IMG/VR virus record: IMGVR_UViG_3300028840_003539
Reading direction: 5' to 3' (one strand)
Length of the DNA: 20,000 bases
Source of the DNA: an uncultured virus (IMG/VR IMGVR_UViG_3300028840_003539)
Lineage: Duplodnaviria; Heunggongvirae; Uroviricota; Caudoviricetes
Below the pieces are notes generated by a model. That model had not been told where the DNA came from and searched no databases. It saw nothing but the letters and a program-made list of their open reading frames with translations. Positions 2,370-17,852 of this stretch are shown here, one piece after another. Each line of letters opens with the position of its first letter. Position 1 is the first letter of the stretch. Position numbers and translations under genes: made by a program.

Positions 2370-3170
2370 ATGGCAGGCTGGAAAAAGCACGTAGTAGACG
2401 TGGCTCGTCTCAGCGCGCAAGTGAGTCAAGAGATGCAGAAGCATCTTGACGTCATTTTGGCAGAACGAATGTCGAAGCGCGCCGACCACGCACGTCTAGC
2501 AGCCTCGCAGGAAGCTCTCCGGCGGCTTCGTGAGCTGTGCCCAGGCATACGGGCATTTTCAGAGATGCCGCTGGAAGAAGCTGAAGCTGCAGTACGTGCG
2601 CTAGCTAGAGACAACCCGCGCGACCTGACCGAGGCCGACCTCAAGCACCTCGACGTGTCGAAGCTCGACTACGGCACGCGACGCCGGAAGCCCCGCGGGA
2701 CCTTCATCGAGCCGATCCGCAACCCCAGTGGTGCCGTCGCACGCTGCGAAGAGTTTCACGGCGACGGCGGCGCTTGTGATAGCTACGTCGAGAAGCAGCT
2801 CTGGATGCCCGGACCGATCGTGCTGATGGGTACCTGCATCGACTGCGGCTACAACGTCACCGACCGCAACAGCGAAAAGGACGGGCGCTACGTCCACGAC
2901 CACAAGTCCGGCGTCAAGCTCTACCGCCGCGCCAAGACCGGCGAGCGCTCGACGAAGACGCTCACGCCGCCCCGCCAGGTGTTCGTGCTAGGCGACTGGC
3001 TCGGCTGCACGTACGACGACGGTGACGGTGAAAAAGAACTGACAGGCTCGTCGCGCGTCAAGGCGTGCACCGACAACGGCAGGCGGCTGTTCGCCATTCA
3101 TTCGACCAAGGGCTGCCTCTACGTGATCTCGGGCGGCAGCTTCCGCATCCGAGACTGGATGTACGACTAG
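2370..3170 (+). CDS. Hypothetical protein with two NP motifs and a beta-rich C-terminal domain
   Basis: 266-aa ORF filling the gap; RDNP and IRNP motifs; C-terminal domain with EEFHG, YVHDH, GGSFRI. Confidence 0.8.
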   Translation: MAGWKKHVVDVARLSAQVSQEMQKHLDVILAERMSKRADHARLAASQEALRRLRELCPGIRAFSEMPLEEAEAAVRALARDNPRDLTEADLKHLDVSKLDYGTRRRKPRGTFIEPIRNPSGAVARCEEFHGDGGACDSYVEKQLWMPGPIVLMGTCIDCGYNVTDRNSEKDGRYVHDHKSGVKLYRRAKTGERSTKTLTPPRQVFVLGDWLGCTYDDGDGEKELTGSSRVKACTDNGRRLFAIHSTKGCLYVISGGSFRIRDWMYD

Positions 3171-3178
3171 GAGCTAGC

Positions 3179-4516
3179 ATGCCTACGAAGCCCAAGAGGT
3201 TGATGATCGAAGTCGATCTCAGGACCGAGCCAGGAACGCTGCACTCTATTCCTGCGCGGCCAGGCGACATCGTCATCGACGGCGATGGCAATGAAATCGC
3301 CACGGATCTCGACTACAACCGCCGTAAGGCTGCCATCGACTTCGTCGATCCGACGCAGCCGCCGCCGACGGAAGTAGTCGGTGACCGCTACGTCTTGAAC
3401 CACACGCCAGGAACAGTCCATCCAGGTTGGGACAATGCGACGCAAGGTGACATCGTCGAGTTCGTCGAAGGACCGCTTCCGACCCTCAATAACTGGGTCG
3501 CACAGCCCCCGGTCATCGGCTGGACGATCTATATAACGGCGCTGGACTACGACCTCCTGTTCGACAAGACCTCGACCTGGGTGCCGCGCATCCTCACAGG
3601 CGTTCCTGCAACGCGGTCAATCATAGCCGGCGCCGGCTTGGTCGGCGGCGGAAACCTGTCGGTGGACCGTACGATCGACGCCGTAGCGCATCCCGACGGG
3701 TCGATCGTCGTCAACCCGGACAACATCCAGGTCGGTGTGCTCGCGACTGATGGGCAGCACGGCGTACGCGGCGGCGGGACGCAGCACGCGTTGGCCACAA
3801 CGCTCGTCGCTGGCTTCATGTCGCCCGCAGACAAGGCGAAGCTCGACGCGGCTGCGCTGTCGTTGTCTGACACGCCACCAGTCGACGTGACCAAGTCACC
3901 TGCCGCGGCAGGCATAGCAACCGAGGCCTCGCGCCAAGACCACAAACACGACGTTGCTACTGCAACCGCGGTTGAGTTGACCGACACGACGAACGCAGAA
4001 GGGGCAGCGACGTCGCTGGCGCGGTCCGACCACAAGCACGCGCATGGAGACCGTGGAGGAGGTTCCCTGCATGCGTTGGCCACGACGCTCGTTGCCGGCT
4101 TCATGTCGCCGGCGGACAAGACGAAGCTCGACGGCCTTACGCCAGGCGGCGGCGGACAGAAGACCGAACACATCTCCATCCAGTCTGGGGACAGGGCGTA
4201 CAGCAAGACCGGGCTCGGCGTCTACTTAGTCGTCGGCCGGTTCCGTTTCCGCGGGACGACTGTAATGGGTACGCCCGCCAACATCCGAGCGAACTACTGG
4301 CAGTCAGGCACTCCTGGTGCCGCCGTGTGGTGCAGAATCCAGGACGCCACCAACAACAACACAATTTGTAGCTCGGCGACGACGAGCCAACTCGACGACG
4401 AGTTCAGAGACCTCGGCGCGTTGAGTTCCTTGCCAGCAGGCCCTGCTACTTTCGAGGTGCAGGTAAAAGCGTCTGGCGGGCAGGTCCGAATCGGCGGCGT
4501 CATCATCGAATACTAG
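3179..4516 (+). CDS. Fibre/spike-like protein (DUF2793-like segment, fibre repeats, C-terminal beta domain)
   Basis: AGGAG RBS before ATG 3179. PPP..GDRY..W..GDI..W..P..GW resembles DUF2793. AGAGLVGGGNLSVDRT, two HALATTLVAGFMSPADKxKLD repeats and two RxDHKH motifs are typical of phage fibre shafts. Confidence 0.75.
   Translation: MPTKPKRLMIEVDLRTEPGTLHSIPARPGDIVIDGDGNEIATDLDYNRRKAAIDFVDPTQPPPTEVVGDRYVLNHTPGTVHPGWDNATQGDIVEFVEGPLPTLNNWVAQPPVIGWTIYITALDYDLLFDKTSTWVPRILTGVPATRSIIAGAGLVGGGNLSVDRTIDAVAHPDGSIVVNPDNIQVGVLATDGQHGVRGGGTQHALATTLVAGFMSPADKAKLDAAALSLSDTPPVDVTKSPAAAGIATEASRQDHKHDVATATAVELTDTTNAEGAATSLARSDHKHAHGDRGGGSLHALATTLVAGFMSPADKTKLDGLTPGGGGQKTEHISIQSGDRAYSKTGLGVYLVVGRFRFRGTTVMGTPANIRANYWQSGTPGAAVWCRIQDATNNNTICSSATTSQLDDEFRDLGALSSLPAGPATFEVQVKASGGQVRIGGVIIEY
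3785..4132 (+). repeat. Intragenic 63-nt (21-aa) direct repeat, copies 3785-3847 and 4070-4132
   Basis: HALATTLVAGFMSPADKAKLD vs HALATTLVAGFMSPADKTKLD, with mostly synonymous nucleotide differences; both are preceded by HGxRGGG. Confidence 0.9.
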
Positions 4517-4525
4517 GAGCGTGGC

Positions 4526-5137
4526 ATGAGCCTGGACTACTACAGAATCTGGTGCGTGACCGACGGCAAGTACGAGTACGAGTGGAGCGAAACGGAGCCG
4601 ACAGTCTGCCCTGTCAACCCCGCGCATACGATCGACCCGACGAAGACCGCCGTAGTCGACACACGCGCGGAGCTTGACATCATCGTCGACCCGGCACCAA
4701 GCGCCATCTTGCCAGGCGCGTCTCTCGTCGTCGCCAACGATCGCCCTGCGGTAGAAGTTCAAGACGGTGGTCTTGGCTGGGGTGCTGTGGACGCGCGTTG
4801 GCCGCACGAGCTGAACGCGAAGGCGCGGCTCAAGGTCTGCATCAAGTTCATCCTGAAATCGCTCGGGACGGGCACAGTCGCTCGCATGGGCGCCCGCGTC
4901 AAGGCAGGCGGGGAAGGCGACGATTCGTCCGAGACGTGGGAAGACACCCAGTACGTCGACGCTCCTGTAACGCACACGACGCTGGGCGAGATCTTCATAG
5001 CGGAGTTCGACCTCGACGCAAGCTCGTTCAACATCAACGACGCGGTCGCGCTGCAAGTCGGACGTGACGGAGCACACGCGAACGACACCCTCGACCAGCC
5101 AGTGCAGATCTTCTGCGTGAAGGGAGTTGCGATCTAA
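4526..5137 (+). CDS. Putative virion protein: N-terminal C..CPxNxxH motif plus beta-rich domain
   Basis: AGGAG RBS; YRIWCVTD...W...PTVCPVNPAHTID; the rest shows alternating beta-strand patterns. Confidence 0.75.
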   Translation: MSLDYYRIWCVTDGKYEYEWSETEPTVCPVNPAHTIDPTKTAVVDTRAELDIIVDPAPSAILPGASLVVANDRPAVEVQDGGLGWGAVDARWPHELNAKARLKVCIKFILKSLGTGTVARMGARVKAGGEGDDSSETWEDTQYVDAPVTHTTLGEIFIAEFDLDASSFNINDAVALQVGRDGAHANDTLDQPVQIFCVKGVAI

Positions 5138-5556
5138 TGCCAGGCAACGAGACAGTAAGCAAGTCCCCGCGTGCTTTTCTGCCCGTGCAGTGGACGAAGG
5201 AAGGCTTCACGGCAGGCCAGGCGGTGGGAGTTTCGCTGCAGATCAGCAGCTTTCCAGCGTCGATCTACGAGATGTCGCTGCTCCGCGAGACGTCGCTCCT
5301 GACGGTCGCCATCGTCCTGAGCGCGGCGCCAACCGCCGGTTTCATCCGCTTCGAACTGACGAAAAACGGCGTCGACACAGGCAAGACCGTGGACATGGAC
5401 ACGGCGAAAGGCACCAGGTACATGTGGGAATTTCGTCCCGGCGAGCTGACTGGTGCCAAAGGTGACCGGATTGGAGTAAAGTGGGGCAGCAGCGGGACGC
5501 TGACGCCGAGCGGAAGCATTGACGGAGCTGTGCTTCTCGAAGTGCAGGACGCATAA
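5137..5556 (+). CDS. Small all-beta protein (putative vertex/spike-associated)
   Basis: TAATG coupling; GGGAG upstream; beta-strand pattern throughout. Confidence 0.75.
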   Translation: MPGNETVSKSPRAFLPVQWTKEGFTAGQAVGVSLQISSFPASIYEMSLLRETSLLTVAIVLSAAPTAGFIRFELTKNGVDTGKTVDMDTAKGTRYMWEFRPGELTGAKGDRIGVKWGSSGTLTPSGSIDGAVLLEVQDA

Positions 5557-5597
5557 AAACAACGCGCTCTGCCTGGGCGCGGCGAGGAGATTCGAAG

Positions 5598-7223
5598 ATG
5601 GCTGCTGGAGATACCAAGAAACCACACGTCAGTATAGATCCCGGTCAGCACAGCCCAGGCGTGCTGCCTACGCGGCCAGTCGGACCAGGCGAAATCCTCG
5701 TCGACGGCGACGGCAACCCCATCGGCGGCAGCACGATCATCATACCCGTCGATCCATCCGGCGATCTCGCGCTCGCGGAAGTCAACACGCTCGCTGAAAC
5801 TCTCCGCAGCGAATTGCTGCAGAAGATTCAGGACGCCTTCGACGGCGCTGTCGCCATGATGGAAGCGTCGGACGATGAAGTAGTCGACGAGCAAGAAGAC
5901 ACCGCGCTGGCAACCATCGAAGCACTAACGGTGAAGCTCCACGCGGAGATCACCCAGGTAGGCGAAGACGCCCTCTCGGGCGCCATCGCGCTCGTCGATG
6001 CGCTCAGGTTGGAGCTGGCGGAATCCGGCAGTGACACCGAAAGCGAGATTGCACAGTTCGAGCATGACATCTCCGAGCTGGAGCAACGTGTCACTGACTG
6101 CTTCGCTGGCGCGGTCGCACTCATCGACAAGCTCGCGCTCGACGTAGCTGTCGCGAAGCAGCACGCCACCGCGGTAGGCGCAGCACTTGCAAACGTGCAG
6201 GAATCGCTGCAGCAGGAAATCTCCGACTGCTTCGCTAGCGCGGTCGCGCTCGTCGACAAGCACACGTGCTGCGACGATGCGTACGCGCTGGTAGATGCAG
6301 CCGCCGCGGTTGCGAAGAGTGATCTGGAAGAAGCCATCGATGACGTCTTTGGTGGCACCGTCGCGCTCGTCGACAGGTCCGCGCTGAAGCTAACCTCAGC
6401 CATTCATACCGAAGCTGGCGGGCTGGTGAGCAATGCCGCCGTAGGTTTGCAAGCTGCACTAGATCAGGCGACCGATTCTCTCCAGGCCGCCATCGCCGGC
6501 GTGGAAGATCGCCTCACGGCGCGCGTCGGCAGGCTGTACGAAGACCACACGACCGACGCTACGCCAAAGGTCATCGCGACGGTTACTCCGTCGCTCACAC
6601 AAACCGTGCGCATCCTGGTCAAAATCCAGGCGCGACGAGCTGACCGGCGGCAGCACGCCGCGTACACGCTCGAAGCACTCGCGCGTGCCGTCGCGGCATG
6701 GGACACCTTGACGCTTTCCGTCGCGATCCCGAGCGACGGCGAAACAGTGACGATCGACGCCGTCACGTACACCTGGCGTGCTGCTCCGGTCGCAGCCTAC
6801 GACGTCAACATCGGTGCCGACATCCAAGGTTCGATCGACAATCTCGTTGCCGCAATCAACCTGACTGGCACAGCCGGTGTCGACTACGGCCCTGGAACGC
6901 TGCAGCATCCAACCGTCTCGGCTGTGAAGACGTCGACGACGACGATGGACGCGGTCTACAAGACGCCAGGAGTCGTAGGAAACGGAATCGTCGCGACCGA
7001 GACGATGGTCAACGGCGTTTGGACCAACGGCGGCGCAGGGCTGGCTGGTGGCTCGGACATGCTGGTGACGCTCTTCACCGACGACGACGATGTCGAAGAC
7101 GACGTCGCCTGGGACGCCACGATGGCTGCGGGAGCTGGTCAGGACGTCGAGGTCAAGGTGATTGGCAAAGCCCTCGCCGACATTCGTTGGCTGGCCGAGG
7201 TTCGCGTCATCGAGCAACCGTGA
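5598..7223 (+). CDS. Large fibre/spike-like protein: shared N-terminal module, acidic helical repeats, C-terminal beta domains
   Basis: GAGGAG RBS; N-terminal PG.L...P..PGEILVDGDGN shared with the 3179 protein; five D.(F/L)..(A/T)(V/I)A(L/M) repeats; Thr/Val/Gly-rich C-terminal half. Confidence 0.8.
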   Translation: MAAGDTKKPHVSIDPGQHSPGVLPTRPVGPGEILVDGDGNPIGGSTIIIPVDPSGDLALAEVNTLAETLRSELLQKIQDAFDGAVAMMEASDDEVVDEQEDTALATIEALTVKLHAEITQVGEDALSGAIALVDALRLELAESGSDTESEIAQFEHDISELEQRVTDCFAGAVALIDKLALDVAVAKQHATAVGAALANVQESLQQEISDCFASAVALVDKHTCCDDAYALVDAAAAVAKSDLEEAIDDVFGGTVALVDRSALKLTSAIHTEAGGLVSNAAVGLQAALDQATDSLQAAIAGVEDRLTARVGRLYEDHTTDATPKVIATVTPSLTQTVRILVKIQARRADRRQHAAYTLEALARAVAAWDTLTLSVAIPSDGETVTIDAVTYTWRAAPVAAYDVNIGADIQGSIDNLVAAINLTGTAGVDYGPGTLQHPTVSAVKTSTTTMDAVYKTPGVVGNGIVATETMVNGVWTNGGAGLAGGSDMLVTLFTDDDDVEDDVAWDATMAAGAGQDVEVKVIGKALADIRWLAEVRVIEQP

Positions 7224-7229
7224 TATAGT
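7201..7229 (+). promoter_or_regulatory. Candidate sigma70-type promoter (extended -10)
   Basis: TTCGCG (7201-7206), 17-nt spacer, TG-A-TATAGT (7221-7229), upstream of the purine-rich RBS AAGGAAAGGAAAAAGGAA. Confidence 0.5.
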
Positions 7230-7290
7230 CTGCGCGATCCGCGCTAAATGAAACACCCGCGCTGGTGCGGGTAAGGAAAGGAAAAAGGAA

Positions 7291-8691
7291 ATGGCAACCT
7301 ACGCACTGCCGACGAACATCATTCTCGGCAACAACGCAGAGAGCGTGCCCAAGGTCGTATTCCCGTTTCGGGACGCGCTCAACAAGCTGACGGGCGGCAC
7401 GGGCGTCAACCCGGTAACCGACATCGGTGACCCCGCAGCGGGCATCGACGTCAGCCCGCTGTCCTACCAGGCCGGCTCACAGGATCTGGAAGACGGGCTG
7501 GTCGACGGCGCCCTCGCGACTCCCGTCGGCGGCTACTACTTCGCCTACGGCAGCGGCAACCGCGCCACGCCGCAGAGCAACCCGTTCCTCTTCGCCCAAG
7601 TCTTCGGCATGGAGATCGCCGAATTCTTCTCGTGGTGGTACGAGGGCACGGTGGGCATCGGGGCCGAAGTCGACGCGGAGATGGTGCTGAAAAGCGTGCC
7701 AGGACCCGCGTGGGTGCCCGGGACGCTCAACGGTCTGGACTCCGGCATGAAGCTGATGGAGTGGCAGATCGCGCAGCAAAACAACGCTGGCCAGCGGGGT
7801 CTCGGTGGCAGCATCTACGACGGGAACACCGGCAACCAGAGCACCTTCCCCAACGCCCTGGGAAAACACGACTACGCCAACATGATCGTCTTCCCGATCT
7901 GCGCCACCGCCGGCGAGAGTGGTGGCTGGTTTAAGGAAGCGGTAACCCTCAAAAAGATGACGCTCGGCAAGTGGTCGGACGGCTCGATCATCAAGATCAG
8001 GCTGGCCGACGAGCCGAAGTGGATTCACTTGCTGGCATTTCCGAACGTCGCCGCGCCCGACGCCATCGACTCCACCACGCCGCTGGCCGACGTCGCCAAC
8101 GGCAACTACAACTGCCTGGAGTACAACATGCCGTTGGGCGACAGCTCGACGATCAACGGCCTGTTCCCGAACTGGCCGGACGTCGCCGACAGCATCATCG
8201 CCCTGGGCATCAAGCACTACTACATCGGGACGTGGCAGACGCCGTTCCGTGGCCGCGTGTTGCTCGTCAACAGGTGGTGGTACAACACCCTCACCATCCA
8301 GGAGCAGCAAGCCATCACGTCCGCCGCGTATCAGTGCGCGATGTCCAACCTGGCCTACATGATGCAGGGTCAGGATGCGATCATCGACCGATTCCAGCTG
8401 CTCGGAGGCGTCGTCCACGAGTCACTGCCGAGGGATTATCTCGGCGTGCTGCGGGAGGCGACCGACGAGATCATGGAGACGTACAACTCGCCCAACAAGA
8501 CGCCGCCGCCGCCGGGCTACACGGCTTCGTCCGAGGACAGCCCACGCGAGTACGAGGCGATGATGCGTCACTGCCGCGCCTTCTGCCGCCACAACTCCGT
8601 CCGCTGGCGCTCGGGCAACCTCGACCGCAGGTTCCGTTTCGGCTCGCGGCTCGACTACGTGCCGAACCTCCAACCCGACGTGAAGCTGTAG
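7291..8691 (+). CDS. Divergent TRAP transporter substrate-binding protein (DctP/TakP-like), no evident signal peptide
   Basis: The motif order matches the TakP-type family: FGM..EFFSWWYEG, IVFPICATAGESGGWFKEAV, KIRL, NGNYNCLEYNMPLGD, KHYYIGTW, LLVNRWWYNTL..EQQAI..AA, LPRDYLGVLREATDEI. Confidence 0.75.
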   Translation: MATYALPTNIILGNNAESVPKVVFPFRDALNKLTGGTGVNPVTDIGDPAAGIDVSPLSYQAGSQDLEDGLVDGALATPVGGYYFAYGSGNRATPQSNPFLFAQVFGMEIAEFFSWWYEGTVGIGAEVDAEMVLKSVPGPAWVPGTLNGLDSGMKLMEWQIAQQNNAGQRGLGGSIYDGNTGNQSTFPNALGKHDYANMIVFPICATAGESGGWFKEAVTLKKMTLGKWSDGSIIKIRLADEPKWIHLLAFPNVAAPDAIDSTTPLADVANGNYNCLEYNMPLGDSSTINGLFPNWPDVADSIIALGIKHYYIGTWQTPFRGRVLLVNRWWYNTLTIQEQQAITSAAYQCAMSNLAYMMQGQDAIIDRFQLLGGVVHESLPRDYLGVLREATDEIMETYNSPNKTPPPPGYTASSEDSPREYEAMMRHCRAFCRHNSVRWRSGNLDRRFRFGSRLDYVPNLQPDVKL

Positions 8692-8704
8692 GCAACGAAG
8701 CCAC

Positions 8705-8735
8705 GGTCGGGAGCTGCCTAGCGTGGCTCCCGGCC
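8705..8735 (+). terminator. GC-rich hairpin after the TRAP-like gene
   Basis: GGTCGGGAGC pairs with GCTCCCGGCC (10 bp incl. one G-U), 13 nt after the stop; U-tract is weak. Confidence 0.5.
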
Positions 8736-8758
8736 GGTGCTCTTCATCAAGGCACGCC

Positions 8759-9130
8759 ATGATCACCGCTGACGACGACCACTACACGTTCGGCTACGGC
8801 GCCGAGGAGTCCTGGTGGGAAGACGAGACGCCAGAGCAAGACTCCTGGTGGCAGAAGCTGATGGCGTACGACCCTGGCGTCAAGACGGCCTACGACGCGT
8901 ACAAGCAGGCACGCGCCGCCGGCATCAGTCCAGCAGAGCTGATCGATCCCGGCGTCGCGAAAGCTGCTACCGTATCCAAAGCTGCTGCAGTCGTCGCAGC
9001 CGCGCAGATAGAAGCCGAAGCGAAGAAGCGGCTTCGAAGCGCTGCTGAAGGCGGTGCGACAGCTGGCTTCGTCGTCGGCGCGCTGCTCGTCGGCGGGCTT
9101 CTCCTCTTTCTCCTCACCAAAAAGAAGTAG
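8759..9130 (+). CDS. Protein with C-terminal membrane anchor
   Basis: MITADDDHYTFGYGAEESWW...; Ala-rich helix; FVVGALLVGGLLLFLLTKKK. Confidence 0.75.
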   Translation: MITADDDHYTFGYGAEESWWEDETPEQDSWWQKLMAYDPGVKTAYDAYKQARAAGISPAELIDPGVAKAATVSKAAAVVAAAQIEAEAKKRLRSAAEGGATAGFVVGALLVGGLLLFLLTKKK

Positions 9131-9461
9131 ATAGACGTCTGCCACCTGCGCTTCGCCGGGGAGACGTCTTCTGTGGAGATGTGACTCACGTGGGAGGCGG
9201 GCGCCTTCGGGTGAGCCCGCAGCAAGCGTACTTCAGCCCCCCGCTGCTCGTCAACTTTCTTTGTATCCTCAACTACTTTTCCGTAGTCCCGCTAACTTGC
9301 TTTAGCAAAACGTCAGCACTACTACAATTTGGCCTTGAGCAGCCAAATCTCGTTCTGTAAGCTCTACTACATCAACGGCAGGCCAGCGCGACCCCCAACC
9401 GCCCTCTGGCGCTGCTACTCGGCCAGCGTTCTGTCGCAACGCTGTCGCCTTGGAGGGTCGC

Positions 9462-10934
9462 GTGCCACTCACAGCACTGCGTCTAGTCAACAAACCAGGG
9501 CGCCGCCGCCGCAAGCCCTTCCCGAGCTACAGCAGCGCCGGCGCGAAGCAGAAGAAACGGAGGAAACCCGTGCCGCAGACCAGGCGCAAGGTACTCAAGC
9601 GCGTCAAGATGGGCAAGGGCTACCGCTGGAGCTACGGCGGGAAGCTGATCCCCGAAGCGAAGGCCAGGCGCATCAAGGCCGCGCGCAAGCTCACCGGGAC
9701 CAAGCCGCGCAGCAACCCGACGCGCAAGAAGCGCACGGCTGTGAAGAAAGCGCCGGCCCGCAAGCGCAGCGTGCGCTACGTGCGCAGCCTGACCAAGCCT
9801 GCCCGTGCTCGCATTCGTCCGATCAAGAAGACGGCCGCGAAGCCTCGCACGATCAGTCGTGTCGCTGCGGCGCGTGCAAACCCAAGGCGCAAGAAGCGCG
9901 TGTCGACTGCGACGCGCAAGAAGATCTCCGCCGCTCTGAAGCGGTATCACCGAGGGACCAAGCGGGCGAGCAGCAACCCGCCGACGAAGAAAAGGAGAAA
10001 GACCGTGGCAAAGAAGACCACGCGTCGTCGCAAGACCACTCGGCGGCGCACCAGAAGCAATCCTCCCCGCAAGCCCAGGTACGGCACCAAGGCGTACTAC
10101 CGCTGGCTCGGCAAGAAGGGCGCAGCGGCGCGTCGGCGCAAGAGCGGAGCCCCGAAGCGGCGCCGCAAGACGACCACCAAGCGTCGTGTGCGCTTCAAGC
10201 GCGGCGCGACCCGCTACAGCAAGCAGCGCGTGCTGCTGCGGCGCAAGCCCCGCGGCCCGCGTGTCAGACACCGCATCCGTCGGCGAACCTACTCACGGAA
10301 GGGCCAATCGCACTACCGCTACAGGATCGTCAAGCGCAACCCAGGCCTCAAGGACATCGGGGCGCTGTTCGGCAAGGTGCTGCCGATCTACGGCGGCTTC
10401 ATCATCTCGCGCATCGGCGCGTCCGCCATCAACACGTACCTCGTGCCGAAGATGGGCGGCTTGCAGACCTCGCTCGGCAAGGCGGCTCCGCTGCTGTCGC
10501 CGGCGCTGCTGCTCGGCCTGTCGGTCTTCGCTGGCCCGAAGGTGCTCAAGGGCAAGACCGGCGGCCAGATCCTCGAAGGCCTGCAGCTCGGCAGCGTCCT
10601 GCAGATCTTCGACGGCATCGGCAAGCAGTTCATCGCGCCGGCGCTCGCCGGCCAGCCCATGCTCGCGTCGGCCTTCGGCGGCTACGACGACATGGGCGTG
10701 ATGGGCATGGGCGCCTACATGGCCGACCCGACCGGCTACAGCCTGCCGCCCGCGCACGCGACGATGGAGCCCGGCATGGGGCTGGACGTCCACGAGGCGA
10801 TGGCGCTCGACGCCTACGTCGCCGACGACGGCCTCGGCCTGAGCGTGGAGGAAGCCCTGGCTGACTCCGAGAGCGCGTACATGCAGCGCGGTGGCGCTGG
10901 TGGCTCGCTCGCCAAGACGGTGTTCACCTACTAG
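9462..10934 (+). CDS. Arg/Lys-rich protamine-like protein with hydrophobic helices and an acidic Gly/Met tail (putative genome-condensing core/membrane protein)
   Basis: GGAGG then GTG at 9462; about 290 aa almost devoid of acidic residues, with five xxNP motifs; then amphipathic/hydrophobic helices and a GMG/GLG acidic tail. A second in-frame RBS+GTG occurs at 10005. Confidence 0.8.
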   Translation: MPLTALRLVNKPGRRRRKPFPSYSSAGAKQKKRRKPVPQTRRKVLKRVKMGKGYRWSYGGKLIPEAKARRIKAARKLTGTKPRSNPTRKKRTAVKKAPARKRSVRYVRSLTKPARARIRPIKKTAAKPRTISRVAAARANPRRKKRVSTATRKKISAALKRYHRGTKRASSNPPTKKRRKTVAKKTTRRRKTTRRRTRSNPPRKPRYGTKAYYRWLGKKGAAARRRKSGAPKRRRKTTTKRRVRFKRGATRYSKQRVLLRRKPRGPRVRHRIRRRTYSRKGQSHYRYRIVKRNPGLKDIGALFGKVLPIYGGFIISRIGASAINTYLVPKMGGLQTSLGKAAPLLSPALLLGLSVFAGPKVLKGKTGGQILEGLQLGSVLQIFDGIGKQFIAPALAGQPMLASAFGGYDDMGVMGMGAYMADPTGYSLPPAHATMEPGMGLDVHEAMALDAYVADDGLGLSVEEALADSESAYMQRGGAGGSLAKTVFTY

Positions 10935-10953
10935 GCCGCGCAGCGGTCTGGTG

Positions 10954-11013
10954 AAAGTAAACCGACCCGTAGGTGTGCCTGCGGGTCACTTTGCCCTGAC
11001 TTCATCCAGGGCA
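10954..11013 (+). promoter_or_regulatory. Two tandem hairpins in the leader of the capsid-like gene
   Basis: GACCCGTAGG-TGTG-CCTGCGGGTC (10964-10987) followed by ACTTT; TGCCCTG...CAGGGCA (10992-11013). Confidence 0.6.
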
Positions 11014-11074
11014 CGTGCGTGTCGGTTTCCTCCCGACGTTAAAAAAGGACGGTAGCGCACGAGGAGAAAGAAAG

Positions 11075-11683
11075 ATGCCAAAGCTCGTTGGAGTCCGTGA
11101 AAGAAGGCACCAGCCGTTCTACGACACCCTGTTCCGTTGCAACGCGGACGGGCCGGCGCCGAGCGTCGGCCGCACCACCAGGCTCTTCGCCTCGGGGACC
11201 AGGCTCAGCGACACGTCCTGGACCAACATGAACATGGCCGGCGCGCTGCCGTCGGACAACACGTTCATCATCCTCTCGATTCGCTGCTGGATGTTCTTCA
11301 AGGGAACGACGCAGGTACCGGAGCCGTTCACCGCAGCGGACGCATACGTCCAGATGGTGCACCAGCTCTACCTCAACTTGTTCGTCGGCGACAAGCCGCA
11401 GTTCCTCGCGCCGTCGTGGTACTTCCCCGCAGGCGGTGGAATCGACGGCGACAATTCTTCGACGCCGATCGCGAACAACGGCGTGCCGTCGCAGGAGTCG
11501 ATCCTCAAGCTCGCCAAGCCGATCCCGGTGCCAGCACGCCAGCACTTCTACGTCGAAGCAACCTTCTTCGACACAGGCAGTGTCTCGGTGCTGGACAACA
11601 TCATCAACATCAACGGCGATGGCATGCCGTTGCGCGAGTGCAAGGTGATGCTCGACGGCATCCACACCCGCGACGTTCAGTAG
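11075..11683 (+). CDS. Candidate major capsid protein (single jelly-roll-like; inferred)
   Basis: Strong GAGGAG RBS; 202 aa, beta-rich; QPFYDT..TNM..GALP..FIILSI..LAKPIPVP..FYVE..VMLDG; strongly biased codons; flanked by hairpins; directly after the basic core-like protein. Confidence 0.55.
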   Translation: MPKLVGVRERRHQPFYDTLFRCNADGPAPSVGRTTRLFASGTRLSDTSWTNMNMAGALPSDNTFIILSIRCWMFFKGTTQVPEPFTAADAYVQMVHQLYLNLFVGDKPQFLAPSWYFPAGGGIDGDNSSTPIANNGVPSQESILKLAKPIPVPARQHFYVEATFFDTGSVSVLDNIININGDGMPLRECKVMLDGIHTRDVQ

Positions 11684-11743
11684 CACTTCCGCGGGCACGG
11701 CTACGCCCTTCGGGGTCACGCCTACCCGCTGTCGTGTGCCTCT

Positions 11744-11772
11744 GCCCCCCAGGGTACGCCCTGGGGGGCTTT
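11744..11772 (+). terminator. Perfect 11-bp hairpin with short U tract
   Basis: GCCCCCCAGGG-TACG-CCCTGGGGGGC then TTT. Confidence 0.65.
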
Positions 11773-11830
11773 CCTCTACCAAGGGTAGAGAGGTGCCGCC
11801 CACCATCAGCGGCCAAGGCAGGAGAAAACG

Positions 11831-12466
11831 ATGGCCCCGCAGCGGAGGAACAACAACGCTGGCGCTGTCATCGCCAACATGGCGATGCGCCTCCAGCATC
11901 ACGAGGCGCAGCTGCAGCAGCTCACCGCGCTTCAAAAAGCCACCGCGGATGCACCCAAGTGGATCGAGCAGATTCCTGGTCGCCGCGTGCCGTTCGGTGG
12001 CGTCATCGACATGCCGATCCCGGCAAACTCAACCTCGATGGTCAGTGGGCTCTTCAATGTCGCCGAAGACGGCCCGTTCGTCCTCACCGCCGTTGCCCTC
12101 TTCTACAAGCTGACCGAAGGCGACTTCGCAGGCATCTGGGGCTACGCGACGGCTGCTAGCTCACGCATCATTTCGACCTACCCCGCGGTAGGGTTCGTCG
12201 GGATGGACAAGCCGCACGTCACCAGCGGCGGCCTGCAGATCGTCGACCGGGGCAGCGACCGCCTCTGGCAAAGCAAGGAGCTTCCCACGTCGCTGTTCAG
12301 CGAAGAAGCTGGCGGCGTCTACGTGCTGCCCGTCGCGTGTCTGTTCGAACGCAGCAGCGCGGTCGAGGCGACGTTCGCGCCTGGCGTGGCGGTCGAGTAC
12401 GCGGGCCTGGTGGAGTGCATCCTGCTCGGCTACAAGATCGTCCAAGGACAGTCGTACCAGCCGTAA
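11831..12466 (+). CDS. Second beta-rich capsid-like protein (candidate single jelly-roll paralog)
   Basis: AGGAG RBS; N-terminal helix, then DGPFVLTAV..LQIVDRGSDR..LPVACLF..VEATF..CILLGYK. Confidence 0.6.
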   Translation: MAPQRRNNNAGAVIANMAMRLQHHEAQLQQLTALQKATADAPKWIEQIPGRRVPFGGVIDMPIPANSTSMVSGLFNVAEDGPFVLTAVALFYKLTEGDFAGIWGYATAASSRIISTYPAVGFVGMDKPHVTSGGLQIVDRGSDRLWQSKELPTSLFSEEAGGVYVLPVACLFERSSAVEATFAPGVAVEYAGLVECILLGYKIVQGQSYQP

Positions 12467-12477
12467 GGAGGCGTTAG

Positions 12478-13149
12478 ATGGCCGCCCCACGACGGCATGG
12501 ACATCCTTGGCGCCAGGCGCCGACGCCTACGGAGCGTGGCGGTGACCCCACTGCGCTTCGCGGCGAGCTGACGCCCGTCGGGCCGGCGCCTTCCAGAGCC
12601 ACCACCTTTCCCGTCAGGGAGATGGACGCCTGGATTCGGACGCTCCCACCCAAGCGCATCACGAACCTGGTGGTCAGCGGCGAGGTGAGGTACGACCACA
12701 CGCTAAACGTCGGGCAGAAGCTCTCGATCGTGCTGGCCCCACACGTGCCGCGGGAAGGCTACGTGTGGGTCATCAACGACATCGACTACTACGCGACGAT
12801 ACCGCCGGATGGACTGGTGGGACCGCCGCAGAACCTGGCCCCGGAAGCGCTGGTCGGCATCCTCCGCTGGGAGTTGCTGTTCGGCGGCACGGCGCCGCTG
12901 CTGACGCCCGCGCAGCGGATGTCGCCGTACGCGCCTGGGCCTGCGCAGTCGACGTCGGGCTGGCCGTGGCTGAACACGCCGTTCGGTCCACAGCGGATGC
13001 CAGCTTTCGCACTGTATTCGGCGGGCACCGAGGAAATCCGCGTCGACGTCACCGTCGAGGCTCTGCCGCGCTTCCCGATCACCCGGTTGGGCGCAAACCT
13101 ACACGGCTTCACGGTAGACGCGTCGCACTTCCCGACCACCTGGATGTGA
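12478..13149 (+). CDS. Third beta-rich capsid-like protein
   Basis: AAGGAGG RBS; Pro-rich N-terminus; VPREGYVWVINDIDYY..LRWELLF..IRVDVTV..ANLHGF. Confidence 0.55.
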   Translation: MAAPRRHGHPWRQAPTPTERGGDPTALRGELTPVGPAPSRATTFPVREMDAWIRTLPPKRITNLVVSGEVRYDHTLNVGQKLSIVLAPHVPREGYVWVINDIDYYATIPPDGLVGPPQNLAPEALVGILRWELLFGGTAPLLTPAQRMSPYAPGPAQSTSGWPWLNTPFGPQRMPAFALYSAGTEEIRVDVTVEALPRFPITRLGANLHGFTVDASHFPTTWM

Positions 13150-13155
13150 GTCGGG

Positions 13156-13313
13156 GTGTTGGAGGGCTTAGAAGGCAGTAATACGGCGATCTTGCGCAAG
13201 AACGAGAGGCTTAGGGGGTCGACTCGTAACTAGCGCGCGCAACAGCCGGAGCGACACCGGCACTGGGGCGGACAACCCTTTGCTGTACTACTGCCTTCTT
13301 GGCTCTCTGACAT
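13156..13313 (+). ncRNA. Unassigned highly structured intergenic RNA
   Basis: Long closing stem 13156-13189 / 13280-13313 (~31 bp, several G-U pairs on + strand, perfect AGAAGGCAGTA/TACTGCCTTCT core) enclosing several short hairpins. Confidence 0.55.
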
Positions 13314-13327
13314 GGTAGGATGGTGAC

Positions 13328-13744
13328 ATGTCACGATACGTCCTCGAACAGGGTCGTCGTCACAACCCCACCGCGTTTGCTCCACGTCCGTACCCGCGAG
13401 GCCAAGTCGGCTGGCCGGCCCAGCTGCTGACGCCCAACGCGAGCACGTACGTCGCGCCAGGCAGCACGCTGACCCACCTTGGGCAGGATGAGCCCAAGGA
13501 CAACAGCAAGCTGATCATGGGGCTCCTGCTCATCGCTGCGGCCATCGTCCTCTGGAAGCTAATCACGCCCGGCGCAGGGCGCAACCCCGGAGGCAAGAAT
13601 AAGGTCGCCCGCGTGTTCAAAGGCGCGAGCGGCTGGTACTACAAGCTTGCGCGCAAGAAGGCGCGTCGCTACGGCCCCTTCGACAGCGAGTGTGCCGCGA
13701 CCGAGGCAGCCGAACGCAAGGGCTACAGCGTAGTGGAGGATTAG
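13328..13744 (+). CDS. Single-pass membrane protein with two NP motifs
   Basis: AGGA RBS; RHNP, HLGQ, TM LIMGLLLIAAAIVLW, GRNP, then a small basic GWYY...YGPFDSE..A domain. Confidence 0.8.
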   Translation: MSRYVLEQGRRHNPTAFAPRPYPRGQVGWPAQLLTPNASTYVAPGSTLTHLGQDEPKDNSKLIMGLLLIAAAIVLWKLITPGAGRNPGGKNKVARVFKGASGWYYKLARKKARRYGPFDSECAATEAAERKGYSVVED

Positions 13745-13745
13745 C

Positions 13746-14039
13746 ATGGGCAAGCCACAGACGCCGCAGACCGCGCGCAGGCGCGCCGCGCGCATGGTCG
13801 ACGGTGCGAGCGCGAACCAAGCCTGGGGAAGCGCCCCTGACTTCGAAACCGCGGTCGAGGCTGCTACGGAGGCCCTGTACGACGCCGACTGGTGGGTCAC
13901 TGCTGTAACCAAGCATCGTGGCTTTCAACATCGGCTCACCCGTCCTGGCAGGCGCCGCATTCGCACGATGTCGCGTGCCCTGTTGCAGGCGGCAGACTTC
14001 CTCGCCTCGCTGTCCTACGCGTTCGAGGAGGAGGCCTAG
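13746..14039 (+). CDS. Hypothetical protein
   Basis: GGAGG RBS; fits exactly between neighbours with 1-nt gaps. Confidence 0.7.
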   Translation: MGKPQTPQTARRRAARMVDGASANQAWGSAPDFETAVEAATEALYDADWWVTAVTKHRGFQHRLTRPGRRRIRTMSRALLQAADFLASLSYAFEEEA

Positions 14040-14040
14040 C

Positions 14041-14445
14041 ATGCCCTACGCAAGCAAGGCCCAACACAGGCTCTTCCGCGCGATGGAGTCGCGGGGCGAG
14101 CTGCCCAAGGGCACCGCATCCCGCTGGATGCGCGAGACGGCGCACTACGAGAGCCTGCCAGAGTACGTGAGCGGCTTCGGCGCGGACGCTGAATCCCGCG
14201 ACACGTTCTACGACCTGGCGATCTTGGGCGCTGGCCTGCTCGGCGGCTTGGTGCTGCCGAAGCGTTACAAGATCTGGTCTTCGATCGCTGCTATCGGACT
14301 CGTCGTCACTCGGGGCTTCGCTAAGTCTTCGTGCCACGAGAAAGCGGCAGCGCTACACGCACGCGCAGCGGCGGGCGAGCAGGTCAAGACGCCGGAGATC
14401 GACTCCTGCATGGGCTTCTGGCCGAAGTTGAAGTTCGCGTCATGA
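14041..14445 (+). CDS. Membrane protein with N-terminal MPxxSKAQ..RGELPKGTA..W module
   Basis: GAGGAGG RBS; MPYASKAQHRLFRAMESRGELPKGTASRW..LPEYV, then SGFGA and two hydrophobic segments. Confidence 0.75.
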   Translation: MPYASKAQHRLFRAMESRGELPKGTASRWMRETAHYESLPEYVSGFGADAESRDTFYDLAILGAGLLGGLVLPKRYKIWSSIAAIGLVVTRGFAKSSCHEKAAALHARAAAGEQVKTPEIDSCMGFWPKLKFAS

Positions 14446-14657
14446 CGCAGTCGTACTACAGCTTTGGTCAGGCCACGACGCCCGCGACGACTGAGCCTGC
14501 AGCAGCGCAGCCGCCGACGCAGACCTTCTGGCAGCGGCATGGTGCAGAGATCATCGTGGGCACCATCACCGCGGTGACGGGCGCGCTGGCGGTCTACTTC
14601 GCCATGCGGCTAGTGGAGTTCCGCGACGTGGCACGCGCGCACGAGGCACGGGGGTGA
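14442..14657 (+). CDS. Small membrane protein
   Basis: ATGA overlap; MTQSYYSFGQ, Pro/Thr/Ala linker, TM IIVGTITAVTGALAVYFAM. Confidence 0.75.
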   Translation: MTQSYYSFGQATTPATTEPAAAQPPTQTFWQRHGAEIIVGTITAVTGALAVYFAMRLVEFRDVARAHEARG

Positions 14658-14660
14658 TCT

Positions 14661-15227
14661 GTGCCCTACGAACCGCTGGTCTACGTCGACGAAGGAGGCG
14701 AAGTCTTCGCCAACCCGCTGTCGTACGGTAGGAGCAAGCGTCGTTTCGTCGAGTTCCGGCGGGGTCGTGCAGCAGAACCTGGTCGATCGTACCGTGGGTT
14801 GCGTGTGCAGGTTGGTCTGATTCGCGAGCCCGGCTACGACCCGAAGGCTGCACCACACATCCGTGGCTCAGCGGACGTCTACGCACTGATTCGCGAGCAC
14901 GCCTACGATGACGTGCAGGAAGCCTTCTACGTCGTCCTGCTCAACGCACGCTCGCAAGTCCTCGGCATCTACGAAGCGCATCGCGGCACCATGACTGGCG
15001 TCGAGGTGCAACCGGCGGACGTGTTGAGGCCCGCCCTCGTTTCAGGTGCGGCAGCCATCGTCGTCGCACACAACCATCCAAGCGGCGACGCAGACCCGAG
15101 TCACGACGACAAGGCGTTGACGAAGCGCCTCACAGAAGCATGCAAAATCGTCGGTGTGCAACTTCTCGACCACCTCGTGATCGGCGAAGACAGCTACGTC
15201 AGCTTCGCGGACCGCGGGCTGCTCTGA
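14661..15227 (+). CDS. radC: RadC-like JAB/MPN domain protein
   Basis: QEAFYVVLLN...AHNHPSGDADPSHDDKALTKRL...LLDHLVIG..YVSF: intact E..HxH..S..D JAMM motif of the RadC family; lacks the N-terminal HhH part. Confidence 0.92.
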   Translation: MPYEPLVYVDEGGEVFANPLSYGRSKRRFVEFRRGRAAEPGRSYRGLRVQVGLIREPGYDPKAAPHIRGSADVYALIREHAYDDVQEAFYVVLLNARSQVLGIYEAHRGTMTGVEVQPADVLRPALVSGAAAIVVAHNHPSGDADPSHDDKALTKRLTEACKIVGVQLLDHLVIGEDSYVSFADRGLL

Positions 15228-16438
15228 TGCGCATGGAGCCTACGCTTTTTCTCGTCGGCCAGCTGCGCGAGATCATCCGCGAGCTGAACAGCGGTAGGTT
15301 CGCCTGGGACCTGGTCGCTGACACAGCCGTCACGATCGCTGGTGAAGGGCTCGACGTGGGCGAGTTGGGCGACCGCCTGCGCGAGGCCTACGAAGCCCGC
15401 AGCAAGCCGTTGGTGTGGCGTGCGATCACAATGACGGGCTGGCGGTGCTGGGAGCTGCTGCAGAAGCCTCTCGAAGCGGTCCCTGCTGCGGTCACAGATG
15501 AAAGTACGGACCGGCGACTCAGCCTCGGCATCACTGTCTTTGAGGGCGATGATGGACCACCCTTGGTGTCTGCGTGGTTTCACTGGCCGCGCGCGTTCTA
15601 CACCGAGCGTGTCGCAGCGGTGTCGAGCCGGGACGTGCGCTCGTTGATGTTCGGCGTGAGTTGGGCAGGCGCGCTGTCCGACGATGCGTTCGACATCTTC
15701 CATGGTTCCGTTGTTCCATCAGCGCGGATGCAACCGGCGCCGCGGCGATGTGGACGCCCACCCGCTGGGCGAGTCGTGGTGCGGCTCAGCGGCAACCGAT
15801 TGCCTGTAGGTGCGTCGGACGGCTACGAGGAAGCCTTCCTAAGCGTCCTTGGCGTCTACCGTGACTTGCCGAAGCTGCTTGAGCAAACGGCGAGGTTGAT
15901 CGATGCAGCTGCTGGGGTACGCGAAAACCCGCGGACGACAAAGATCAGGTTGTACCCTGACCTTCCCACTGGCGAGCCTCACTTCGAGGACGTAACAGCT
16001 GTCAGTCCACGCGGCGTTCCAGACTGGATGTTAGTCTCGGCGCCCACCGAAAGACACCGAACGCGCACGGGGCGCGTTCCGCCGGGTGGCTGGACGATCA
16101 CGCACAAGCCAACAGGGCTTGCGATCCTCCGCGGTCTGACCAGGGCAGACGCTGCACTCGCAGCTCGTGTGATCGCGCGCGAGGCACCCTGCCTGAAAGA
16201 CGTAGACGAAGTAGTCACCGACTGGTCACGCGACCCGCTGCGTTCCGCCTTCGAACTGATAGAGAAGCTGCGAAGCCTGCTCTCGCGCAAAGCGGACGTC
16301 TTGCGCGAAGGGCAGAACGTGCCGATGATTGCCGAGCTGATCCAGTACGACCTGATAGCGCCGCGCGAGCTGCAGAAGCTACCGCCGGCGACGCAGGTGG
16401 CGCTCGACGCCTGGCTGGAAACGGCGAAGGTGCGCTGA
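15227..16438 (+). CDS. Hypothetical multi-domain protein
   Basis: TGATG coupling at both ends; 403 aa; internal RENP; WTITHKPTGLAI segment in the C-terminal part. Confidence 0.7.
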   Translation: MRMEPTLFLVGQLREIIRELNSGRFAWDLVADTAVTIAGEGLDVGELGDRLREAYEARSKPLVWRAITMTGWRCWELLQKPLEAVPAAVTDESTDRRLSLGITVFEGDDGPPLVSAWFHWPRAFYTERVAAVSSRDVRSLMFGVSWAGALSDDAFDIFHGSVVPSARMQPAPRRCGRPPAGRVVVRLSGNRLPVGASDGYEEAFLSVLGVYRDLPKLLEQTARLIDAAAGVRENPRTTKIRLYPDLPTGEPHFEDVTAVSPRGVPDWMLVSAPTERHRTRTGRVPPGGWTITHKPTGLAILRGLTRADAALAARVIAREAPCLKDVDEVVTDWSRDPLRSAFELIEKLRSLLSRKADVLREGQNVPMIAELIQYDLIAPRELQKLPPATQVALDAWLETAKVR

Positions 16439-16947
16439 TGCCCGTTCATCCCCTCGCAGAACGCAAGCTGCCGCCGAGCCCCGGCACGAAGTTCGGAGCT
16501 GCACGCAGCGCAGCCGGCCGGCCGGCCGAGTGCGGCGGCGGGCACTGCGGCGTCGACCTGTACTACTGGAAAGCGGGGCTAGACCCGAACACAGGCATCG
16601 GCCGCCCCGTCTTTGCTGTCGCTGCCGGCAAGGTGATCGCGGCGAGCGAAAGCGATTCAGCGGGCAAGTACGTCTGGATCAAGCACGACAGCTTCCGCAG
16701 CCACTACGTTCATCTTGACAGCTACTTCGTCAGGACAGGCGACACGGTTGCCGAGGGGCAGCAGATCGGCACGTTGGGCCGCACGGGCATCACGACCGAC
16801 CCAGCGCATCTACACTTCGGCCTGTCGACGCTGGCCGGCAAATACTACGACCCTGAGCCCAAACTGCGCGTCTGGCCGCTCGTCGGTGGCGGCATCGGCT
16901 TGCTGCTCGTCGCCGCAGCGGTGCTCTACTGGTACTGGAAGAAGTGA
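16438..16947 (+). CDS. M23 family peptidase with C-terminal membrane anchor
   Basis: HCGVDL (HxxxD), GRPVFAVAAGKV, YVHL, V..GD.V..GQQIG..G.TG, HLHF (HxH); C-terminal GIGLLLVAAAVLYWYWKK. Confidence 0.92.
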   Translation: MPVHPLAERKLPPSPGTKFGAARSAAGRPAECGGGHCGVDLYYWKAGLDPNTGIGRPVFAVAAGKVIAASESDSAGKYVWIKHDSFRSHYVHLDSYFVRTGDTVAEGQQIGTLGRTGITTDPAHLHFGLSTLAGKYYDPEPKLRVWPLVGGGIGLLLVAAAVLYWYWKK

Positions 16948-17852
16948 TGCGGCGCAACCCGCTCGACCCGGACGCGCACGCGCGCGACCCGCACCCGACA
17001 GCGCTGGCGCGGGGGCGGGACGACCGGCGCGGCGTGCACACGACACCCGACAAGCTCACGGCGATCTGGTACGCGATGATGAAGGCATCGCACTCGCCAC
17101 CCGGCGAGGACGACACCGGCGTCTTATTTCTGCTTGACACGCAAGGGCTCGAAGCCCACCCGGACTTCGACGCCGAGATCGAGCGCAAGCACACCTACTT
17201 GCGCGACCTGGCGTGGCTGGTCACCGGCGAGTTCGAGCTAGACCCTGAAAATCTACAAGACCACGACCGCCTAGCCGACCTCATCCGAGGTGACCTCGAA
17301 GACTACGAGACCGAACACCAGGTCGACGTCGGAAACAGCGTGCTGTCGACGATCTACTTCGGCCCAATGGGACGCGGCGTAGGCAACCAGCGTATCCTCG
17401 GCGCGCTGCTAGAGATGGCCGAAGGCGGCGATGCAGACGAGATCATCGAGGTGCTGAAGAAATACTACAAGAGCAACGACCTCGAAGACCTGCCGCTGGA
17501 GTGGTTCGCCTACGCGATGCAGCAGTGGCGATACTTCGTCCCAGTCGGCTTCGACCGCGTCGTGCGAGTCGAGATCGTGCGCCCGTGGAACGACTACCTC
17601 TACGACGAAACCGACCACGACGCGTTGAACGAAGCGGAAAGCTCCGGGCTGCCGTTCTTCATGCTGGACGACGTCTACAGCGGCCTTGACGAAGGCGACT
17701 TCGAGACCGCGACGGTCTACGAGCGGAAGCCTCGCCCAGGAGCCCGGCTAGAATGGCACGGCACGAACGTCGCGCGGGCACGCGCAGCGTTCCCTCAACT
17801 TGCCAGCAAAATCGAGAACGTCTGGAAGACGCCTTTCGTCGCGGTAACTTGA
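16947..17852 (+). CDS. Acidic protein with ADP-ribosyltransferase-like motifs in permuted order
   Basis: Starts MRRNP; GVHTT..TAIWYA..GVLFLLD near the N-terminus, QQWRYF in the middle, EWHGT near the C-terminus. Confidence 0.6.
   Translation: MRRNPLDPDAHARDPHPTALARGRDDRRGVHTTPDKLTAIWYAMMKASHSPPGEDDTGVLFLLDTQGLEAHPDFDAEIERKHTYLRDLAWLVTGEFELDPENLQDHDRLADLIRGDLEDYETEHQVDVGNSVLSTIYFGPMGRGVGNQRILGALLEMAEGGDADEIIEVLKKYYKSNDLEDLPLEWFAYAMQQWRYFVPVGFDRVVRVEIVRPWNDYLYDETDHDALNEAESSGLPFFMLDDVYSGLDEGDFETATVYERKPRPGARLEWHGTNVARARAAFPQLASKIENVWKTPFVAVT

Follow-up and report, generated by a model that had tools for sequence, protein, structure and literature searches.

A conserved Asn-Pro motif at the N-terminal edge of modules in unrelated proteins of an uncultured Caudoviricetes virus: a candidate processing site

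The 20,000-nucleotide stretch of the uncultured virus record IMGVR_UViG_3300028840_003539 (Caudoviricetes), which was analyzed as a whole and is referred to below as the window, encodes several otherwise unrelated proteins with a recurrent Asn-Pro (NP) dipeptide. A preliminary description of this DNA had presented it as an (R/K)xNP motif marking domain boundaries. Judging from the sequences of the window proteins and their homologs, NP forms the center of a genuine short linear motif under selection, approximately [V/A/P]-[R/K]-[R/K/S]-N-P, located at the N-terminal edge of modules; the basic residues of the earlier formula were retained, and the motif proved to be wider, with a hydrophobic residue at position −3. 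The reading placed first here, tentatively, is that the motif is the recognition site of a processing protease. The working gene set comprised 28 provisional window proteins (5987 aa). The G+C content of the window was 63%, and plausible genes were all on the + strand, to which all coordinates below refer; genes and their products are named by their first coordinate.

All 12 tetrapeptides reported previously were confirmed in + strand open reading frames (ORFs), namely, RDNP and IRNP in ORF 2370-3170; RSNP, RANP, SSNP, a second RSNP and KRNP in ORF 9450-10934; RHNP and GRNP in ORF 13328-13744; FANP in ORF 14661-15227; RENP in ORF 15227-16438; and RRNP in ORF 16947-17852. The main carrier is the 494-aa product of the 9450 gene (9450..10934; its Atlas record begins at residue 5, i.e., at base 9462), in which an Arg/Lys-rich N-terminal region of 300 residues is followed by a hydrophobic and acidic C-terminal domain. 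The reported scarcity of Asn in the basic half was borne out, with six Asn residues, five of them in NP. The protein was assigned to no Pfam or PHROG family, and when 29 aligned family sequences were scanned with Pfam at E up to 1, matches to five families were obtained, none of them in more than one member (best E 0.014). The conserved C-terminal part, used as the query, yielded 28 homologs, and together with those of contigs L003 and L006 the family comprised 31 proteins. In their basic halves, Pro followed 147 of the 206 Asn residues against 13.1 expected (11.3-fold, z 37), a count in which the sites of related members are not independent events; the next most enriched dipeptide was AA (2.2-fold). 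Asn preceded 147 of the 461 Pro residues, whereas the commoner T, S and G did so just 27, 17 and 15 times, respectively, and S, T and G before Pro all fell below expectation. The consensus given above was derived from 60 sites of 13 divergent members, where V, A, I, L or M occupied position −3 in 34 sites (background 0.247, binomial p 1.3e-7), R or K occupied position −2 in 39, and R, S or K occupied position −1 in 39. In the window copy, NP was followed by basic residues (NPTRKK, NPRRKK, NPPTKK and NPPRKP).

The AlphaFold (AF2) model of the 9450 protein (mean predicted local distance difference test, pLDDT, 61) contained several confident small elements in the basic half, and every NP lay between predicted elements, in settings that differed from site to site (after helices, after a beta-sheet, before a helix). 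RSNP (N89, 9708..9719) was located in a low-confidence stretch (residues 86-111) after the predicted helix 69-82, RANP (N144, 9873..9884) immediately after helix 135-143, SSNP (N176, 9969..9980) two residues past helix 153-174, and the second RSNP (N204, 10053..10064) in a low-confidence stretch ahead of helix 214-232. KRNP (N297, 10332..10343) marked the junction of the basic and hydrophobic regions, P298 being the first residue of the predicted helix 298-330. The junction Asn was invariant in all 29 aligned sequences and formed one of just 20 invariant columns; pairwise local alignment with generic gap costs misaligned the junction NP, whereas MAFFT aligned it. The remaining sites were mobile: none of the four basic-half NP sites of the window copy aligned with a site in L006, yet L006 has seven. 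In closer homologs, the N144 and N176 sites lay on both sides of a conserved 'RKKIS..LKR.HR' module. A resemblance of this module to a homing-endonuclease DNA-binding motif was considered and dropped, Pfam giving no support.

The 13328 gene (13328..13744) encodes a protein of 138 aa consisting of an N-terminal part, a hydrophobic helix and a small basic C-terminal part. In the alignment of 15 sequences of this family, N86-P87 of GRNP (13577..13588), located between the helix and the C-terminal part, was invariant (15/15), with V, A or I at −3 in 14 of the 15, and the NP of RHNP (N13, 13358..13369) was retained by 12 of 14 homologs possessing that region. At the beginning of contig L005, a partial ORF likewise combined a hydrophobic helix, SSRRRR-NP and a similar small domain; it looks like a paralog and therefore was not counted as independent. 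In the 266-aa product of the 2370 gene (2370..3170), RDNP (N82, 2607..2618) lies in the N-terminal half and IRNP (N118, 2715..2726) at the start of the C-terminal part (residues 119-266), which in the sister lineage is a separate ORF. This stand-alone homolog, L006:2529-2990, starts V-N-P, and the ORF before it (L006:1930-2532) ends in RRRRP, its stop codon overlapping the start of the next ORF (GTGA overlap). The L006 pair, which matches 2370-3170 in position and in the C-terminal part, is split directly before NP.

The ATG of the 16947 gene (16947..17852) overlaps the M23 peptidase stop codon, and the 301-aa product is a putative ADP-ribosyltransferase (ART)-like protein. RRNP (N4 from the ATG at 16947; 16950..16961) opens a conserved domain start, (R/K)(R/K)NPLDP. 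The homolog search yielded 97 representatives at E 0.001 or better, 39 of which were aligned over N4-P5; NP was present in 37 of these, with ND and NA once each. It was located no more than 20 residues from the start in 26 proteins, usually after M and two basic residues, and was internal in 13 longer ones. Extensions fused to 16947-like domains (37 segments, 7443 aa) contained 30 NP against 10.3 expected, which made it their top dipeptide (SP and TP, 1.4-fold and 1.3-fold). In an all-against-all BLAST of multidomain relatives, none of the seven off-domain alignments listed started within 10 residues of an NP. Among 20 long relatives scanned, NUDIX was fused in three and GNAT in one; fusions to modules of no assigned family occurred as well. 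As for the nature of the enzyme, no PDB entry reached E 0.001 in a Foldseek search with the predicted model (pLDDT 91.9), the ART-toxin rows from VIA-align were weak (Z 4.3-4.8, residues 2-267), and the Atlas neighbours included Arr, DarT/PARP and ART-PolyVal clusters; an ADP-ribosyltransferase-like enzyme is a weak lead. Of the cargo labels proposed previously, RadC/JAB was confirmed by Pfam, and the ART-like fold of 16947 is reasonable as such a lead. The model also contained a long helical insertion (residues 72-193), and many relatives had a conserved NPW..(Y/C).QP near the C-terminus.

Two further sites complete the set: FANP (N18, 14706..14717) in the RadC/JAB protein 14661-15227, within an N-terminal extension ahead of the RadC domain, which begins at residue 68, and RENP (N234 of 403, 15920..15931) with V at −3 in the product of 15227-16438.

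In the 28 window proteins, NP occurred 18 times against 10.2 expected (p about 0.01; rank 9 of 370 dipeptides) and [RK]xNP eight times against 1.05, a number reached in none of 5000 shuffles. The [RK]xNP excess persisted with 30-residue block shuffles, and among 377 [RK]x-dipeptide patterns it ranked first. Half of the eight copies, however, lay within one repetitive protein, 9450, so that a proteome-wide frequency claim rests on one family. Without 9450, R or K at −1 or −2 of NP was found six times against 1.71 expected (p 0.009) and NP 13 times against 9.65 (p 0.16). In the sister lineage (L005 and L006, 21 proteins, 5202 aa) without the 9450 homolog, [RK]NP was found three times against 0.88 (p 0.054). 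A bias of the lineage as a whole toward NP was rejected, with 5 NP against 5.0 expected (1.0-fold) in the C-terminal domains of the 9450 family and 14 against 20.6 (0.68-fold) in the 7291 family. A DNA-level motif was rejected as well: AACCC was counted 22 times on the + strand and 7 times on the − strand, where about 26 would be expected for each. Since AACCC was not enriched as DNA, 17 of the 22 + strand copies were in frame 0 and the third codon positions varied, selection acts at the protein level. In addition, the L005:4021-5097 product, which has no window homolog, contained an NP-bearing repeat, GALPNPP[KR]R, which occurs twice at a spacing of about 45 residues.

The excess of [RK]xNP in the window stood up to shuffling, but as a proteome-wide enrichment it was driven by the 9450 family, and the sister lineage showed none once its homolog was removed. 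What is beyond chance is the density of NP within families and the conservation of its position. Homologs of four unrelated proteins (9450, 13328, 16947 and, in its C-terminal part, 2370) retained the motif and had it at module starts, so that the proposal was not refuted by examining enrichment, conservation and boundary position in homologs. The boundary claim holds for KRNP, GRNP, IRNP and RRNP but is not general, as the 16947 relatives P0077 and P0088 show (see below). As to the proposed signal that sorts or processes virion cargo, the conserved motif at module starts was retained, whereas the maturation-protease and encapsidation functions suggested for it are hypothetical.

We propose that a trans-acting factor, most likely a processing protease cutting at or beside the N-P bond, recognizes the motif. 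In the 9450 family, five to nine NP copies are spread over the arginine-rich half, which presumably binds DNA; one invariant NP divides this half from the hydrophobic domain, another follows the 13328 membrane helix, and a basic leader with NP opens both the ART-like domain of 16947 and the C-terminal part of the 2370 protein. Cleavage would cut up the basic half of 9450 into short peptides and release or trim the modules that follow it; if the cut falls after Asn, V or A at −3 would be the P4 residue. Reading by a partner, rather than a local turn alone, is suggested by the strict use of Asn with avoidance of Ser, Thr and Gly, by upstream determinants common to unrelated families, an extended consensus being expected of a recognition site, by the occurrence of the same sequence in differing predicted structural settings, and by the retention of copy number while positions drift. 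Because of these features, together with the precedents of the SPN3US protease and of scissile N-P bonds considered at the end, a processing site was placed first. The stronger version of this proposal, in which the N-P bonds are truly scissile, through an N-P-specific protease or asparagine-lyase chemistry, and protamine-like peptides are left on the packaged genome, is considered quite unlikely. If true, the hydrophobic domain of 9450 would be released and co-delivered enzymes unmasked, and a bacterial virus would possess an adenovirus-like processed DNA core built on a chemistry hitherto described for reovirus capsids, for type III secretion switches and for RsgI.

A number of observations weigh against processing. 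The evidence on site position consists of sequence and predicted structure, from which cleavage is inferred, and Pro at P1' blocks most proteases. Beyond the M23 peptidase and RadC/JAB, the DNA read (the window, 2.7 kb upstream and about 17 kb of the sister lineage, about 40 kb in total) yielded no protease gene, and RadC more likely acts on nucleic acids, according to the part of the source available (PMC5512222). Outside the 9450 family, frequencies were near background: [RK]xNP rose marginally in the window without 9450 (4 against 0.88, p 0.011, rank 5 of 374), and in the sister lineage without the 9450 homolog neither NP (11 against 9.7) nor [RK]xNP (1 against 0.9) was significantly enriched. 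Within the 9450 family, whose members are related as stated above, Pro followed the junction Asn in 25 of the 29 sequences (NA once and ND three times in the others), and members P0042 and P0043 contained no NP at all. In stand-alone 16947-like proteins, the motif lies 4-20 residues from the start, where a cut would remove almost nothing; residues 1-30 of the 16947 model (pLDDT 74-78, beta-bridge at residue 6) may belong to the fold; and in P0077 and P0088, homology begins 18-32 residues upstream of NP, so that NP is not always the edge of the shared module. Finally, the position of P298 at the start of a predicted helix fits a purely structural cap.

Many of these points are those expected of structural punctuation without shared machinery, in which NP would be a turn or a helix stop or start between basic segments and folded modules. 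This reading follows closely on that of a processing site and is regarded as possible, if doubtful. It would have NP act in 9450 like the Ser-Pro turns of SPKK repeats, make NPLDP part of the 16947 fold, and explain the likeness of the families by the commonness of basic linkers. It requires no unseen component, in keeping with the lack of a protease in the region read, and it agrees with the placement of every NP of 9450 between predicted elements (N144 and N176 after helices, P298 starting one), with the basic residues after NP in the window copy, with the modeled N-terminus of 16947, with the retention of NP at the very start of stand-alone proteins, and with the background frequency outside the 9450 family. 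However, Ser, Thr and Gly form similar turns and caps and are commoner, yet they are under-represented before Pro, whereas Asn is 11-fold over expectation. The extended sequence, hydrophobic at −3 and basic at −2 and −1, recurs in unrelated families and in differing predicted settings, and the number of sites is kept as their positions turn over, as is usual for linear motifs that a partner recognizes.

The same evidence for recognition in trans (strict Asn, extended consensus, drifting positions) applies equally to an uncleaved docking or sorting tag, a multivalent motif bound by the capsid interior, a membrane protein, the portal or a chaperone, by which a DNA-binding protein and enzymes would be brought to the genome, as eukaryotic EH domains bind NPF in disordered regions. 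Retention of the motif at extreme N-termini, where cutting would be pointless, and the many copies per protein fit such multivalent binding, for which NPF-EH multivalency is a precedent in the part of the source available (PMC12370899). On the other hand, neither a partner nor virion proteins were recognized in the window by Pfam and PHROGs, and an internal tag at a module junction has no obvious advantage over a terminal one; docking is considered unlikely and was ranked after the structural turn. Self-cleavage, in which the Asn side chain would attack its own carbonyl, slowly or when triggered in the particle or after entry, was ranked last and is very unlikely, for, although N-P is scissile in reovirus mu1, YscU and RsgI (partial texts of PMC3207474 and PMC10328401), Asn is strictly required in the 9450 basic halves and the 13328 NP lies just after a membrane helix like the RsgI site, the known sites are each inside their own dedicated fold according to the same texts, whereas most sites here are in low-confidence, probably flexible stretches of unrelated contexts, Pfam showed no similarity of the carriers to those families, and NPTH is replaced by NPTR and NPTA in the window. 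A Lys-Asn isopeptide cross-link and a sortase-B-like NPxT signal were considered and dropped, no feature supporting them.

A different shared element may be a better candidate than NP for a common sorting signal. At least nine proteins end in a Gly/Ala-rich stretch followed by a hydrophobic helix (often LLGxAALLAL) and a few terminal Lys or Arg residues, a layout reminiscent of a tail anchor or of a tripartite sorting signal at the C-terminus. In the window, these are the products of 1597-1950, 1947-2366, 8759-9130 and 16438-16947; outside it, they are those of L001:187-2184, L001:2194-2661, L005:646-2787, L005:2809-3558 and L006:2983-3276.

Among the 28 window proteins, Pfam matches at or above the curated cut-off were obtained for RadC/JAB (14661-15227), the M23 peptidase (16438-16947) and Amidase_2 (18872-19549), and one protein had a glycine-zipper match just below it. 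No capsid, portal, terminase or maturation protease was recognized among them by Pfam and PHROGs. The PHROGs scan gave tail-fibre-like matches for the 3179-4516 product; this protein contains an internally duplicated unit of about 30 residues (GGG..HALATTLVAGFMSPADK.KLD) and had both tail-fibre and minor-head PHROG matches. Long alternative-frame ORFs overlapping real genes, such as 9329-10864 (511 aa, over the 9450 gene), are Arg/Ala/Pro-rich high-GC shadows and were not treated as genes.

Relatives were obtained from metagenome contigs only. Contig L001 overlaps the window over 18,688 bases with 0 mismatches, whereas the sister lineage (L003-L006) has 12 window genes in common in a changed order, with protein identities of 35-62% and the gene block 9450-11075-11831-12478-13328 kept. 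No relatives were found in the phage collection by DNA, in phages or plasmids by protein, or in the viral-contig and species-genome contig collections. The Atlas neighbours of two carrier proteins were predominantly viral clusters, which is taken as a lead only. The best-conserved protein of the region was the 7291-8691 product; a precomputed PF03480 (DctP solute-binding) match was present in 9 of 17 homologs of its family, one of which, from a Planctomycetota metagenome-assembled genome, is named a type 2 periplasmic-binding domain protein, and the window copy had no Pfam match at E 0.01 or better. The C-terminal part (about 280 aa) of the coiled-coil, fibre-like 5598-7223 product was found in a 641-aa protein of the sister lineage (L006:8460-10385), and the C-terminal part of the 5598 protein also occurred in the C-terminal extension of one 7291-family member, P0018. 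An AAA+ ATPase of the Mg-chelatase/MoxR type (L005:5087-5995 / L006:15-335), adjoining the 7291 homolog, and a small methyltransferase (L006:3280-3837) were present in the sister lineage; BLASTP located neither of them in the window.

If the motif serves in processing or sorting, it would provide a simple sequence rule predicting which proteins of a wholly uncharacterised virus lineage, none of whose 28 window proteins belongs to a known structural family, are handled together, and it would point to a genome-associated arginine-rich protein. To our knowledge, such a protein has no precedent among bacterial viruses, and nothing comparable was listed by a literature search close to this subject. 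If it is only a structural turn, the use of Asn-Pro would be unusually strict and could be employed by annotation tools to delimit modules.

In comparison with known systems, the motif probably lies outside the self-cleaving families N6, N7 and RsgI, to which its carriers showed no similarity by Pfam, and it belongs to neither the SPKK nor the 2A type. SPKK/SPXX are DNA-binding turn repeats of histones H1 and H2B, and the window copy of 9450 resembles them in that a turn-forming residue and Pro precede basic residues and recur along a basic region. An SPKK-type repeat was rejected, however, as Asn replaces Ser/Thr, S-P and T-P are under-represented, determinants lie upstream, and the motif occurs outside basic repeats as well. 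The NPGP of 2A-like ribosome-skipping peptides was absent, the window having NPGL and NPGG and the 13328 family NPGG, NPGH, NPGK, NPPG and NPKG. In the adenovirus core, basic genome-condensing precursors are cut by a viral cysteine protease; they are likewise basic proteins with a short consensus that is also found in other virion precursors, but that virus is eukaryotic, its consensus is different and its protease is known, whereas cleavage and DNA condensation are putative here. Regarding Asn-Pro itself, according to the available parts of two sources, five of the ten asparagine peptide lyase families are viral coat proteins, viral N-P self-cleavage releases a peptide inside the particle, and the N-P site of RsgI lies just outside a membrane helix (PMC3207474, PMC10328401). 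The 9450, 13328 and 16947 families share a conserved Asn-Pro with N7 (reovirus mu1), N6 (YscU/FlhB) and RsgI; unlike these, which have one site per dedicated fold, they have many sites in unrelated, partly flexible contexts, and the N6 switch motif NPTH (Asn-Pro-Thr-His) was rejected, there being no His after the window NPTR and NPTA.

Polyvalent proteins, as described in the part of the source available (PMC5512222), unite from two to fifteen conflict-related domains in one polypeptide; RadC, ART, GNAT and NUDIX-type domains co-travel in mobile elements, and peptidase domains are proposed to process multidomain proteins of phages and conjugative elements. Some 16947 relatives are similarly multidomain (NUDIX, GNAT), whereas in the window RadC, the ART-like protein and M23 are encoded by separate genes, and no metallopeptidase domain was seen. 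An N-P delimiter or 'linker' is not mentioned in the available portion of that paper (PMC5512222), and no paper listed in the literature search described Asn-Pro as a delimiter in proteins of phages.

The closest parallel is provided by the maturation motifs of large phages. According to the part of the source available, the SPN3US protease gp245 cuts after AXE with a preference for V, and less so A, at P4, and SPN3US propeptides contain several motif copies, the N-terminal ones being 20-254 residues long (PMC10052503). As in that system, a short motif occurs here in several unrelated proteins of one virus, at what would be a leader/mature boundary, with multiple copies in long leaders and V or A preferred three positions ahead of the final residue of the motif (PMC10052503). 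Unlike it, the motif here consists of N-P after basic residues instead of Glu, no cognate protease or capsid gene was recognized in the DNA read, and the motif is carried chiefly by an arginine-rich region of 300 residues, which would more probably stay with the DNA than be expelled. Prohead proteases of T4-like phages cut at their own short motifs, the T4 prohead system itself having an LxE motif and capsid-targeting leaders. Since protease, cleavage and virion location are inferred in the present case, the Asn-Pro motif is not filed among the maturation-motif systems, but it appears to work like them.

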